A stretch of DNA of 64,000 bases from Clostridia bacterium (GTDB lineage Bacteria; Bacillota; Clostridia; UMGS1883; UMGS1540), in NCBI GenBank assembly GCA_045533905.1, contig JAZSIR010000013.1, positions 12,392-76,391 of the forward strand. Direction: 5' to 3'. Position numbers and translations under genes: made by a program. The notes under the pieces are model-generated. The model saw nothing but the letters and a program-made list of their open reading frames with translations, was not told the DNA's origin and searched no databases. Position 1 is the first letter of the stretch. Every line of letters begins with the position of its first letter. This document shows, piece by piece, positions 26,940-31,367 of the stretch.

Positions 26940-27272
26940 ATGAGAAAGTTAGGAAGACCGACCGATCAGCGTAGAGCTATGCTGAGAGGCATGGTTACAT
27001 CTTTCCTCGAAAACGGCAAGATGATGACCACGGAAACCCGTGCTAAGGAAATCCGTCCCATCGTAGAAAAAATGATCACGCTTGGCAAGCAGGACACTCT
27101 GCATGCAAGACGTCAGGTTATGAGCTACGTTACAAAGAAGGACGTATCTTATAAAGTGTTTGCGGAAATCGCACCGAAATATGCAGAAAGAAACGGCGGC
27201 TACACCAGAATTATTAAGGCTGGTGTCAGACGCGGCGATGCTGCACCGATGGCGATTATCGAACTCGTATAA
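26940..27272 (+). CDS. rplQ: 50S ribosomal protein L17
   Basis: [28 protein letters not shown]. Confidence 0.98.
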
Positions 27273-27284
27273 GAAAAGCACAAT

Positions 27285-27325
27285 AAAAAGAGCTGTCATA
27301 AGAGATGTACTCTTAAGGATAGTAA
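27285..27325 (+). repeat. Left terminal inverted repeat
   Basis: AAAAAGAGCTGTCATAAGAGATGTACTCTTAAGGATAGTAA matches the reverse complement of 30630-30670 at 35/41 positions (outer 16 perfect). Confidence 0.88.
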
Positions 27326-27328
27326 TTT

Positions 27329-27362
27329 AAAAGGCTGAACGATCGATTTCGTTCAGCCTTTT
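27329..27362. terminator. Intrinsic terminator just inside the left end; would terminate the alpha operon
   Basis: AAAAGGCTGAACGA...TCGTTCAGCCTTTT. Confidence 0.85.
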
Positions 27363-27365
27363 ATC

Positions 27366-27450
27366 GTAGGTGGGCGATGCTTACATCGTCCCGTTTATAA
27401 GGTTTTAGGATTATCCTAAATTATCGGAAGATGCGATACATCTTCCCTGC
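27366..27450. repeat. Pair of oppositely oriented GTAG-type REP-like palindromes
   Basis: GTAGGTGGGCGATGCTTACATCGTCCCG (27366-27393) and, on the minus strand, GCAGGGAAGATGTATCGCATCTTCCG (27425-27450), with a TTTAGGAT/ATCCTAAA palindrome between. Confidence 0.5.
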
Positions 27451-27477
27451 TCGTTAAAGTAGCGGACAAGAATTTTA

Positions 27478-27532
27478 TTGACAATTTCATACATTTATGA
27501 TATCATAATACTATAATATTATGATATCATTA
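27478..27532 (+). promoter_or_regulatory. sigma-A promoter overlapped by two palindromic operators
   Basis: TTGACA-N17-TATCAT (TG extension); TTATGATATCATAA at 27495-27508 and TTATGATATCATTA at 27519-27532. Confidence 0.75.
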
Positions 27533-27545
27533 TGGAGGCGAAAAA

Positions 27546-27725
27546 ATGAATAATTCAAAAACTCCAACATCAGAAAAAATAGGTATTCCTTTACGATTAG
27601 AACTGAAATTGTATGAAAAAATGATAAATAGAGTTCAAAAAGAAAAAAAGAAACAACGGGGATACAGCATAAATCAACTTTTGACAGAACTTCTTGAAAA
27701 GGAACTAAAGGAGAATGAACTATGA
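27546..27725 (+). CDS. Arc-like ribbon-helix-helix DNA-binding protein (59 aa; putative R-M controller; absent from ORF track)
   Basis: GGAGG SD at 27534-27538; MNNSKTPTSEKIGIPLRLELKLYEKMINRVQKEKKKQRGYSINQLLTELLEKELKENEL (beta-strand xLRL, helix, G-x-S-I-N helix); ATGA overlap with the next gene. Confidence 0.78.
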   Translation: MNNSKTPTSEKIGIPLRLELKLYEKMINRVQKEKKKQRGYSINQLLTELLEKELKENEL

Positions 27726-29539
27726 TAAGAGCAGATATAATTTCTACAATAGGAAGACAGTATTTAACAAGTAATATTGAAAATGATGAATATAGTTATC
27801 CTAAAGCTTTTTCAGCGGCAGCGTTGACATTTGTACCTATTACAAATGCAAATGGAAGAAAATTTGAAAAACTTGATATTCGTTTTGTGAAGGATGGAGT
27901 TACTGTTCTTGTGGAGACTAAACAGAATTTTGTAAAAACAGATGAAGAACAATTATCAGCCTATGTTGAGTATGAAAAAGCTCTCACTGGAAATAAAACC
28001 ATTGCTATTTTAGCAAATACCACAAATGATAAAGTAAAGGTTTGGCGTGGAGTTGTTTCTGACGGCGATTTTATGTCAACGGAAACAGCATTTCGTACTA
28101 TGGATGAATATGTTGATTTCTATACGTCAAAAATTAACGACAAAGAAAAGGTGATGCAGAATACATACAAGCTTAATGAAATGTTACATCGTCACAGCAT
28201 CCCCGAAAAACTTCGTAGTCAGTTTGTAGGCACGTGCTTATTAGCCTTGAAAAACGGTCTTGATTATTCCACTTCTTCGTTGTCTGCAGCACAAATTCGT
28301 ACAAGAATAAAAGAGGTTTTGGAAGAACTGTTGAATTCTGATATTAATAAAGCCGAGAAACTCGCGCTGCTCAATCGTAATGTTTTGGGTGATCAGTATG
28401 TTCGTCAACTTGGTATTGTAGCATTTAGAGAAATTTTAAAATTCATTGAAGAAAACATTCTTCCATTTATCAACGACAAAAGTACTTCCGGTCAGGATCT
28501 ATTGAATTTATTCTTCGTTACATTTAATAAGTATGTAGGTAAATCTGACAAAAATCAAGCATTTACACCAGATCACATTACTGATTTCATGTCGAAAATT
28601 ACAGGAATTAACAAGCACTCCGTTGTTCTTGACCCCTGCTGTGGTAGTGGTTCGTTCCTTGTTCGTGCAATGAACCAAGCGCTTGATGACTGTGCTACCG
28701 CTTCTGAACAGGAAAACATTAAAAAACATCAAATCTTCGGTATAGAATTTGACGAAAATGTGTATGGTTTAGCTACAACCAATATGCTTATTCACTCGGA
28801 TGGGAACTCTAATATTCGTCAGGGAAGTTGTTTTACATTAGCAGATTGGATTAAAGATGCAAAACCAAATGTGATTTTGATGAATCCTCCATACAACGGT
28901 CAGCGTATTCATTTACCGCAATCTTATGTTTCAACTTGGCCTAAAGACAAGAAAGAAGATCCTTCAAAAGGAATGTATTTTGTTAAATTCATCGCTGATA
29001 CATTAAACTCAATCAACCATCAAGCAAAATTAGCTGTCTTATTACCTGTTGCATGTGCAATTGGAACAAGTGGTGAAATTTCGAAAATAAAGAAGGAAAT
29101 TCTTGAAGAAAACACCCTTGATGCTGTATTTACGCTTCCCAACGAAATTTTTTATCCTGGTGCAAGTGCTTCCGCTTGCTGTATGGTATTTAAGATTGGC
29201 ACAAAGCATAACGATGTTTCAAACCCCGACACTTTCTTTGGATATTACAAAGATGATGGATTCAAGAAAAAGAAAAACCTCGGTCGTGTTGAACAGATTG
29301 ATATTACTACCGGAAAGAGTAAGTGGGTTGAAATTGAGCATGAATGGATAGAATTATATCGCAACAGACGTGCTATTGATGGTTTATCTGCTACTTATAA
29401 AGTTACAGGAGAAAACGAATGGCTTTGCGAAGCATATATGAAAACCGACTATTCAAAATTAACAGAACAAGATTTTCAACAAACGATAAATGATTATCTT
29501 GCTTACCTCGTAAAGGAGGGACATATTTATGAACCTTAA
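27722..29539 (+). CDS. Fused restriction endonuclease/N6-adenine methyltransferase (BcgI A-like, Type IIB/IIG)
   Basis: N-terminal D...VLVETK (PD-(D/E)xK-like), FTPDHI, DPCCGSGSFL (motif I), NPPY (motif IV), gamma-class order; 605 aa. Confidence 0.88.
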   Translation: MIRADIISTIGRQYLTSNIENDEYSYPKAFSAAALTFVPITNANGRKFEKLDIRFVKDGVTVLVETKQNFVKTDEEQLSAYVEYEKALTGNKTIAILANTTNDKVKVWRGVVSDGDFMSTETAFRTMDEYVDFYTSKINDKEKVMQNTYKLNEMLHRHSIPEKLRSQFVGTCLLALKNGLDYSTSSLSAAQIRTRIKEVLEELLNSDINKAEKLALLNRNVLGDQYVRQLGIVAFREILKFIEENILPFINDKSTSGQDLLNLFFVTFNKYVGKSDKNQAFTPDHITDFMSKITGINKHSVVLDPCCGSGSFLVRAMNQALDDCATASEQENIKKHQIFGIEFDENVYGLATTNMLIHSDGNSNIRQGSCFTLADWIKDAKPNVILMNPPYNGQRIHLPQSYVSTWPKDKKEDPSKGMYFVKFIADTLNSINHQAKLAVLLPVACAIGTSGEISKIKKEILEENTLDAVFTLPNEIFYPGASASACCMVFKIGTKHNDVSNPDTFFGYYKDDGFKKKKNLGRVEQIDITTGKSKWVEIEHEWIELYRNRRAIDGLSATYKVTGENEWLCEAYMKTDYSKLTEQDFQQTINDYLAYLVKEGHIYEP

Positions 29540-30596
29540 TGTTGATTCTTGGAAAGAATTTCAACTAACAGATGTTTTTATTGTAAAAGGTGGATTCTAT
29601 AATAAAAAGCCCGAACATTCAATTGATGGTCGTGTTCCTTTTCTTGCTTCAACTGAATCAAATAATGGTGTTACGGAATACTACTCTTTAGATGATATTA
29701 AATCTTGGAATAAAGTAGGAAATGCAGACAACACGCTTGACAAAAAAATATACAAAGGTAATTGTATTGTTGTTACAGTTGACGGATCTGTTTGTAATGC
29801 TTTTTATCAAAAAGATGATTTTACTTGTAGTCATAGTGTTACTGCATTATATCCTATAGGTCACGAACTAACACCAACTCAAGCATTATTTGTTTGCACT
29901 GTAATTATGAAAGAAAAGTATCGTTGGAGTTATGGTCGAAAGCCACATGATGTTAAGAAATTTGGTAAATCCATTATAAAACTACCAATCACTAAAGATA
30001 GAAATGTTGATTGGGATTTTATGGACAAATACATAAAATCGTTAAATCACAAACCATTGACAACGACTAATCAAGGCAACACAACCTCTACACTTGATGT
30101 TGATTTGTGGAAACCTTTTAAAGTGAAAGATATCTTTAATTTGTACAACGGAATAGGAATTACAAAAGAAGAAATTGAATGCAATCAAGGCGATTTTCCT
30201 GCTGTTCAAAGCGGCGAAGAAAATAATGGTTGCATAGGTAAAATCGATAAAGAATATTGCAAAAAAATGAGATATACATACACAGATGATCCATGTTTAA
30301 CTGTAGCAAGGACGGGATCTGCAGGTTATGTTTCATACCAACCCACAGGCTGTGTTGTTGGTGATTCTGCAAAAATACTCACATTAAAAGACGCTCAACA
30401 TAACAACCCTCATATCTTTCTTTTTCTTAGAACCATACTTATGGCTAACCAATATAAATATACATATGGTCGCAAAGTTACAGAAGATAAATATTTATCT
30501 GAAATAGTTATGCTACCTGCAACAGAAGATAACAAACCTGATTTTAATTTTATGAAAAATTATATTAAATCTTTGCCATACGGAGATAAGATTTAA
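29529..30596 (+). CDS. Specificity subunit (HsdS/BcgI B-like) with two TRD repeats
   Basis: Internal duplication: LNVDSWKEFQLTDVF...YSYGRK-like...LPITKDRNVDWDFMDKYIKSL versus LDVDLWKPFKVKDIF...YTYGRK...LPATEDNKPDFNFMKNYIKSL; overlaps the MTase gene. Confidence 0.88.
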   Translation: MNLNVDSWKEFQLTDVFIVKGGFYNKKPEHSIDGRVPFLASTESNNGVTEYYSLDDIKSWNKVGNADNTLDKKIYKGNCIVVTVDGSVCNAFYQKDDFTCSHSVTALYPIGHELTPTQALFVCTVIMKEKYRWSYGRKPHDVKKFGKSIIKLPITKDRNVDWDFMDKYIKSLNHKPLTTTNQGNTTSTLDVDLWKPFKVKDIFNLYNGIGITKEEIECNQGDFPAVQSGEENNGCIGKIDKEYCKKMRYTYTDDPCLTVARTGSAGYVSYQPTGCVVGDSAKILTLKDAQHNNPHIFLFLRTILMANQYKYTYGRKVTEDKYLSEIVMLPATEDNKPDFNFMKNYIKSLPYGDKI

Positions 30597-30597
30597 A

Positions 30598-30631
30598 AAA
30601 GCAACCTCTCGATTTTTCGAGAGGTTGCTTT
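30598..30631 (+). terminator. Intrinsic terminator of R-M operon
   Basis: AAAGCAACCTCTCGA-TTTT-TCGAGAGGTTGCTTT. Confidence 0.88.
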
Positions 30632-30670
30632 ACTGTCCTTTAGAGTACACTCCATATGACAGCTCTTTTT
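30630..30670 (-). repeat. Right terminal inverted repeat
   Basis: TTACTGTCCTTTAGAGTACACTCCATATGACAGCTCTTTTT, inverse of 27285-27325. Confidence 0.88.
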
Positions 30671-30759
30671 TAGACTATCGAAAACCCCTTCTACCGCAAG
30701 AATTCTTTCATAACCACTTCGATTATCCATTTTCTACCCGCAAAGAAGTATAAAAATTT

Positions 30760-30792
30760 AATGGCGGAGATTCATCGAGAATCTTCGCCATT
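30760..30792. terminator. Hairpin, probable terminator for the minus-strand nfo-to-DUF5662 genes
   Basis: AATGGCGGAGATT...AATCTTCGCCATT. Confidence 0.55.
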
Positions 30793-30839
30793 TCTTGCTT
30801 TTTACGAAATCGTTTTGCGATGTCTATTTGTATTTCTGA

Positions 30840-31367
30840 TTAATACGATTTACAGTTTCGTATAGCTCGGAATGCCGCATCCTCGCCTTCTTCAGCTAAG
30901 ATGACGAGCCAGCTTTCGAGGAGTGCCGAGGTTTCGGGATGGATAGCGCGGTTTGCGATGCCGCGGCGGAAATAGGAGAGGGGATGCTCATTTGTGTACG
31001 CTGCCCCTTGGTAAATTTTGCTTGCCGCCACGCGGTCACAAAACATTTCTTTTACAAAGATAAGCGGCATTTTCACCGGCGTCATCACGCGCGTGATGCG
31101 GTCGTAATCCGTCCAGTATTCAAAGTGATGCCGGTTTCTGCCCTTGTGGTGAATCCAGGCCCTCGAGTACCCGTATTCCTCGCGTTCACCTTCATTCGGG
31201 CTTTTGGTGCCCTTGAAGTATTTTACACCGGCACAAAATTCCGCCGGATTGTATTTCGATAAATCGTGCAAAAGACCGCGCCATAAAATGCCCGCACGCG
31301 CGCAGTGGCGGATTACGGCGTGGCGATGCCGCGTGATAGTCGAATAATGTCCCCAGAAGTTACCCAT
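30840..31367 (-). CDS. DUF5662-family HD-like protein
   Basis: LLHDLSKY, AWIHHKGRNRHHFEYW, EMFCDRVAASK motifs. Confidence 0.85.
   Translation of the reverse strand: MGNFWGHYSTITRHRHAVIRHCARAGILWRGLLHDLSKYNPAEFCAGVKYFKGTKSPNEGEREEYGYSRAWIHHKGRNRHHFEYWTDYDRITRVMTPVKMPLIFVKEMFCDRVAASKIYQGAAYTNEHPLSYFRRGIANRAIHPETSALLESWLVILAEEGEDAAFRAIRNCKSY

Follow-up and report, generated by a model that had tools for sequence, protein, structure and literature searches.

Integrative and mobilizable elements (IMEs) of the Tn4451/TndX type encode their own large serine recombinase (LSR) and relaxase. A restriction-modification (R-M) cassette in the genome of a Clostridia bacterium encodes neither, yet it shares with these IMEs attachment (att)-type ends, a common 2-bp core and a match to the element of its cognate recombinase. 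The cassette lies in a 64,000-nucleotide stretch of DNA (GenBank assembly GCA_045533905.1, contig JAZSIR010000013.1, positions 12,392 to 76,391 of the forward strand), here called the window, and splits the terminator downstream of an open reading frame (ORF; 26940..27272) that we take, in line with a first-pass annotation of the window, to be rplQ. The cassette, which has no mobility genes and sits in the loop of the rplQ terminator, is probably a satellite that combines att sites with an origin of transfer (oriT) and would rely on other elements for its recombinase, relaxase and transfer pore. Below, G000 is the source genome, other G labels are genomes compared with it, and L labels are individual loci compared.

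Other described systems share part of this organization. Cis-mobilizable elements (CIMEs), as the sections of PMC5704250 used here describe them, keep attL and attR and lack integration and transfer genes, as does the cassette. However, CIMEs are described as decay products that an adjoining element mobilizes in cis, whereas the cassette is flanked by the host genes rplQ and DUF5662 and a 156-bp repeat, without mobility-gene fragments; it is a solitary element, has an oriT-like motif and is one of a compact family whose members occur at many terminators unrelated to each other. Mobilizable genomic islands (MGIs) and other relaxase-less mobile genetic elements (MGEs) likewise have an oriT without a relaxase but encode their own integrase, which the cassette does not (sections of PMC5704250 and PMC12084326); the putative oriT of the cassette is related to that of a helper in sequence and position. 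Miniature inverted-repeat transposable elements (MITEs) resemble the cassette in being non-autonomous, in their short imperfect inverted ends and in lying near gene ends; unlike them, the cassette family has ends that track a serine recombinase, a variable 2-bp core and one to five cargo genes. No description of integrase-less, relaxase-less att and oriT cassettes aimed at terminators was found in the text of the open-access papers searched.

The limits of the element are set by comparison with a relative. The first-pass annotation had described an AT-rich block bounded by 41-bp inverted repeats, and both features hold. The repeat arms (27285-27325 and 30630-30670) are identical at 35 of 41 positions, with the outer 16 perfect, where the best inverted 41-mer match in 20 block-shuffles of the 4-kb region reached only 26-30 of 41; GC content is 0.34 inside 27301-30654 versus 0.48 in the flanks. 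It had also been noted that removing 27301-30654 and one TA regenerates a perfect 30-bp palindrome, and that an empty site might be found by aligning the rplQ-DUF5662 interval in relatives. The alignment did reveal one: in the same-genus genome G004 (L021), which matches the window at 98% across the rplQ region, the exact palindrome lies directly 3ʹ of a nearly identical rplQ and is followed by the DUF5662 gene. TA is present once in this empty site, whereas two copies flank the inserted element. Insertion took place at the central TA of the host palindrome, with the same 2-bp core at both junctions. Since G004 has the palindrome intact, the outermost 14 bp on either side are host terminator and the element proper is 27301-30654, which refutes an earlier model in which the whole 41-mers were the ends of an insertion sequence (IS). 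Among the eight other genomes of the genus that were compared, the empty site was found only in G004; the other seven have different sequence, with other terminators, 3ʹ of rplQ (five intervals read).

The ends of the cassette are likely attachment sites of an LSR of the DUF4368 type rather than IS ends. As the first-pass annotation had proposed, the source genome was searched for further copies. The inner 25-mers, with up to four mismatches allowed, occur nowhere else in G000, but a relaxed 17-bp end motif led to a recombinase element, occurring at two further places. One follows, at a distance of approximately 48 bp, an intact gene whose 574-aa product combines Resolvase, Recombinase, Zn-ribbon and DUF4368 domains, and this copy (G000:C8:36565) is identical to the right-end motif of the cassette. 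The other is at the start of the window's contig, approximately 37 kb from the cassette and beside a TnpV gene. The two ends lie against the halves of a single palindrome whose core is TT, and the genes flanking them are adjacent in G004 and G002. Because one palindromic target is split and its flanks are neighbors in those genomes, the C8 and C4 ends are read as a single element with an unassembled interior. These ends (G000:C8:36559-38741 and G000:C4:1-2416) also hold DUF6809 and a weak TnpW match, and G004 has approximately 1.1 kb of other sequence, apparently one gene, between the same flanks.

The association between end and enzyme extends beyond this genome. Of 80 metagenome loci with relatives of the 574-aa enzyme, the match was full in 69 and was followed there by 150 bp or more of sequence. 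The end motif lies 54-68 bp behind the recombinase match in five of the six loci at 67-70% identity and in none of the 63 at 62% or below, most of which have an end that is related yet distinct, with varied targets beyond it. End sequence therefore tracks recombinase identity. The helper recombinase has the domain set of the clade that includes TnpX of Tn4451/Tn4453 and TndX-like enzymes, and is 37.5% identical to an annotated TndX. As a separate observation, one recombinase element of a human gut clade at 58% (L070-L135) occupies dozens of different targets ending in T-runs, and its copies differ in the bases at and beside the junction, a hint that core mismatch is tolerated.

At least 122 ends were found by a pattern search of GTDB genomes, with named records nearly all from gut Clostridia; viral contigs gave no match to the end pattern. 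The cores of the 122 ends listed are TA (47), AA (32), TT (29), AT (12), GA (1) and CA (1), and 109 of these ends have an A-run (at least four A in the five positions 13-17 bases outside). Exchange by a serine recombinase leaves a variable 2-bp core repeated at both junctions. When ends were paired regardless of core, 30 elements of 92-5937 bp resulted, one of them a duplicate record, and 29 carry the same core at both ends, L172 being the sole mismatch. None of the 30 contains a gene with similarity to a recombinase, relaxase, MobC or TnpV. Moreover, related recombinase-less cassettes occupy different sites: L050 and L051 are 85% identical over 714 bp, and the ends of L152 and L234 are 99% identical over 323 bp.

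Most members of this family lie within terminator hairpins. In a set of 22 elements, which leaves out L172 with its unmatched halves, 17 rebuilt empty sites fold at -12 kcal/mol or below, versus 14 of 462 mismatched combinations of halves. Three rebuilt sites (L029, L034 and L177) have no hairpin and keep the A-run and T-run, which suggests that the target is recognized by sequence rather than by hairpin structure. All 21 elements longer than 200 bp carry a hairpin near -11 kcal/mol or stronger inside at least one end, most of them at both; among interior control windows, nine of 105 fold at -12 kcal/mol or below. The DUF4368 domain marks a clade of multi-targeting LSRs, TndX-like enzymes included, whose targets, like those of the cassette family, are loose, A-rich on the left and T-rich on the right (Durrant et al., PMC10083194, main text and text supplements). 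The natural attB of one of these enzymes, Cp36, consists of an A-run, a hairpin and a T-run in the supplement of that study, and the portion of PMC13137831 used here reports a non-conserved core for Cp36. The end motifs of the cassettes do not occur in the text supplements of PMC10083194, nor does the word terminator occur in its main text. The present data would give the A-rich and T-rich target motif of DUF4368 recombinases a biological reading, namely terminator targeting.

Several members of the family merit separate mention. Two are gene-less miniatures of 92 and 184 bp (L200:95-186 and L242:140-323), and some ends are themselves palindromes (L202 near 4743, L050:2383 and L051:9160). Genes for DUF559, a Vsr-like nuclease, lie inside five of the 30 pairs and recur in cassettes with AA, TT or AT cores (L169, L179, L184, L187 and L197); cassettes with these cores lack the oriT-like segment described below and have in common a different conserved left-end motif. 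Y1 transposase genes lie inside three pairs, all with a TA core. Both kinds of gene look like passengers. G000 itself contains decayed left ends of the family, one (C11:78330-78500, L042) with a terminator and an oriT-like segment, the other (C12:7116-7173) with an end fragment and terminator only.

The second constituent of the proposed satellite is a 70-bp segment (27399-27468), likely an oriT, which the first-pass annotation did not mention. It is conserved among cassettes and matches two recombinase elements, where it lies just upstream of genes for a NikA-like MobC and a PF03432 relaxase. When 39 relaxase loci were searched with a profile made solely from the cassette copies, 20 of the 21 loci at 48% identity or more gave a match 334-504 bp ahead of the relaxase gene; in the exception, L057, an extra ORF displaces it. 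Among the distant loci, 16 could be scored and six of them gave weak matches, whereas the 37 control windows inside relaxase genes gave none. The layout of an inverted repeat followed by G^C, as well as the bases around the cut, agrees with a putative MOBP7 oriT located upstream of mobC (Fig S7 and associated text of PMC12084326). Three helpers (L058, L180 and L190) carry the cassette's own end motif, with the order oriT, mobC, relaxase, ParB-like gene and recombinase; Tn4451, by comparison, uses MobV rather than a PF03432 relaxase with MobC. In ten cassettes the segment has a fixed place approximately 60-170 bp from an end, unlike its internal position in the helper. Rfam gave nothing near the gathering score for 27200-27600, and no useful plasmid match to the segment was obtained. 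Viral contigs gave 13 matches to the oriT pattern, of which one (L349) scored well and lies upstream of mobC and a relaxase gene; the rest are probably chance.

What lies between the ends appears to be an intact R-M pair of BcgI type (Type IIB-like), together with a small regulator. An R-M operon with terminators at both ends and no transposase or integrase had already been read from the sequence, and Pfam, PADLOC and the hairpins bear this out; none of the three ORFs is a mobility gene. The regulator, also claimed then, is likely only. Like BcgI-type Type IIB systems, which cut on both sides of their site, the cassette encodes nuclease and methylase motifs in one polypeptide and a separate specificity subunit. 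In the 605-aa protein, motif I (304) and NPPY (388) follow PD-(D/E)xK-like residues near D52/E65/K67; its best matches are PADLOC Type IIG models, and a PDB search returned only distant Type I methylases. Autorepression of the operon by the 59-aa protein is likely because a near-consensus promoter is overlapped by a palindrome. This protein has no Pfam or NCBIfam match, and a ribbon-helix-helix fold is hinted at, as a lead only, by its Atlas look-alikes, among which an RHH_1 cluster (12% of members) ranks 16th. Two other cassettes share this promoter, operator and regulator layout, with R-M enzymes only 29-30% identical. As cargo the enzyme is ordinary and widespread, relatives at 90-93% identity making up at least 119 other clusters; since it is widespread, and since six homologue loci have no cassette ends, it was captured. 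The closest of these loci, 90% identical (L336, G335:C7:55435-60246), lies between other ORFs in what by eye is a defense-island context. The coordinates of all features are given in Table 1.

Table 1. Positions in the window of the cassette, its parts and the adjoining host features
Feature	Positions	Strand	Basis
Presumed rplQ, last gene of ribosomal cluster, host	26940..27272	+	ORF; region match to G004
Left arm of host terminator palindrome; target half, attB-like, outside element	27285..27298		Present in G004 empty site
2-bp core TA, left junction	27299..27300		Palindrome reconstruction and G004 empty site
Left element end, putative attL inner arm	27301..27325	+	Same motif in 122 or more GTDB stretches, also downstream of DUF4368 recombinase genes
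Element-borne terminator-like hairpin, predicted stand-in for split rplQ terminator	27328..27363		15-bp perfect arms
GTAG-tagged short hairpin, REP-like passenger	27366..27393	+	Alignment; several sister cassettes lack it
oriT-like segment; putative G^C nic (27449/27450) preceded by two inverted repeats	27399..27468	+	Profile search
Sigma-70-like promoter	27478..27506	+	11/12 consensus match
Palindromic operator overlapping promoter	27497..27530	+	Palindrome; same layout in R-M cassettes L034 and L175
59-aa small protein, likely autorepressor, possibly ribbon-helix-helix	27546..27725	+	ORF
Fused endonuclease-methyltransferase, 605 aa	27722..29539	+	Pfam N6_Mtase; PADLOC REase_MTase_IIG, E 1e-52
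Specificity subunit, 355 aa, two target-recognition stretches	29529..30596	+	Pfam Methylase_S (2 stretches); PADLOC Specificity_II
Element-borne terminator-like hairpin, right end	30598..30631		15-bp perfect arms
Right element end, putative attR inner arm	30630..30654	-	17-bp motif match
2-bp core TA, right junction	30655..30656		Palindrome reconstruction and G004 empty site
Right arm of host terminator palindrome; target half	30657..30670		Present in G004 empty site
Separate repeat of about 156 bp, short imperfect inverted ends, directly after terminator, outside cassette	30671..30826		Repeat copies
DUF5662 gene, host, convergent with rplQ	30840..31367	-	Pfam PF18907

How the cassette would move can be pieced together from these parts. 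A TnpX/TndX-like recombinase acting in trans, for which the intact C8 gene of G000 with the same end motif is a candidate, would excise the cassette as a circle and re-insert it. The target would be a loose pattern with an A-run 13-17 bp to the left of the junction and a T-run to the right, which bidirectional intrinsic terminators fit, and the hairpins that the cassette brings along would re-establish termination to either side of it. MobC and the PF03432 relaxase of a helper would nick the oriT, with an integrative and conjugative element (ICE) or a plasmid supplying the pore. The R-M pair, autoregulated by the small protein, is predicted to protect against phage and may stabilize the cassette.

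On a broader view, to which we give somewhat better than even chances, gut Clostridia harbor a large and actively spreading family of such satellites, made up of two serine-recombinase att ends, terminators and an oriT. They would parasitize mobilizable elements that themselves parasitize ICEs, land in terminator loops without disturbing transcription and carry swappable cargo such as R-M systems. If so, they are a dispersed, array-free counterpart of integron cassettes that surveys based on integrases or relaxases do not see. ICE and IME finders rely on integrase or relaxase genes (ICEscreen methods, PMC12084326), so elements like the cassette are invisible to them. Movement in trans would mean an uncounted route for defense and metabolic genes in gut Firmicutes, and the ends of approximately 25 bp would constitute a natural minimal donor for a class of tool enzymes.

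Several results weigh against the satellite interpretation. All 14 recombinase-adjacent ends among the 122 listed have a TT core, so action of the helper on TA cores is something we infer, and no TA-core element with a recombinase was found among the ends scanned. The oriT-like segment is not family-wide: it is present in 16 of 18 TA-core pairs, several of which were fetched for carrying it (in the unbiased scan set, six of eight distinct TA pairs have it), and in none of the 12 others. The window's copy departs from the consensus by one base just after the putative nic. No second site was found for the exact R-M cassette, the six homologue loci lacking its ends as noted above. As for the helper functions, the interior of the G000 helper element is unassembled, no match to the PF02534 coupling protein was found in G000, and the sole G000 relaxase reaches only 33% identity to the cognate type; its oriT match, at 9 bits, is weak. 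With no coupling protein found and its relaxase distant, G000 may thus allow the cassette to be excised without permitting its transfer.

The main rival explanation, which we consider unlikely, is that the cassette is a stranded remnant, a CIME left by a once autonomous recombinase and relaxase element that lost its mobility genes after insertion and is now immobile or mobile only in cis. Such a deletion, in terms of which PMC5704250 defines CIMEs, would leave the same att-type ends and oriT, and the lack of a coupling protein and a close relaxase in G000, like that of a second site for the exact cassette, agrees with this view. However, decay should be set against the absence of mobility-gene fragments from all 30 paired elements, the fixed place of the oriT in ten cassettes and the presence of related recombinase-less cassettes at different targets. 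Furthermore, the three R-M cassettes share one regulatory layout despite their divergent proteins.

A MITE-like carrier with terminal inverted repeats (TIRs), mobilized by a TA-duplicating DDE transposase of the IS630/Tc1 type, is highly improbable. In its other model the first-pass annotation had proposed an element with TIRs inserted at the central TA of the terminator, and under either model it had envisaged a MITE-like carrier that targets terminators. The inner ends of approximately 25 bp, the insertion at a central TA, the replacement terminator, the absence of a mobility gene and, with the family data, the choice of terminators all survive from that proposal; the TIR, IS or MITE mechanism is not supported. 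TA on both sides, the imperfect inverted ends and the failure to see a TA-core member with a serine recombinase are in favor of the transposase. Yet IS630/Tc1 transposition is TA-specific, with obligatory TA duplication, whereas 75 of the 122 ends listed are not TA, AA/TT and AT cores occurring on the same ends. Moreover, no DDE element with these ends was found, there being no DDE_3 match in G000, and the ends adjoin serine recombinase genes, with the autonomous partners found encoding an LSR.

Just as improbable is mobilization as a TIRtron-like unit by a Y1/HUH (RAYT-like) transposase: the Y1 genes in three TA-core pairs and the GTAG hairpin in the window recall the Y1 gene between repeats of TIRtrons and REPtrons, but this cassette has no such gene, the query used found no Y1 match in G000, Y1 lies near only two of the 122 ends listed (39 with 2 kb of interior), DUF559 passengers are commoner, the hairpin is a dispensable insert, and the presence of one 2-bp core at each of the two junctions is what the chemistry of serine recombinases, not that of HUH enzymes, would leave. 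The definition of GTAG repetitive extragenic palindromes (REPs) applied to this hairpin, and the description of tyrosine transposase genes flanked by TIRs, come from the relevant parts of PMC3733652.

The surroundings of the cassette are themselves variable. The interval between rplQ and the DUF5662 gene ranges within the genus from 53 bp to 7.9 kb and holds unrelated genes (L023/G007, L024/G008, L025/G006 and L026/G003). The repeat of approximately 156 bp that abuts the right end of the element is missing from G004 at this position. It belongs to a family of 145-160-bp repeats that looks MITE-like, with four further copies in G000 (C17:59342-59477, C9:40821-40965, C9:30071-30211 and C7:6202-6341) and others in G003, G004, G006 and G008; most copies begin right after terminator-like hairpins.

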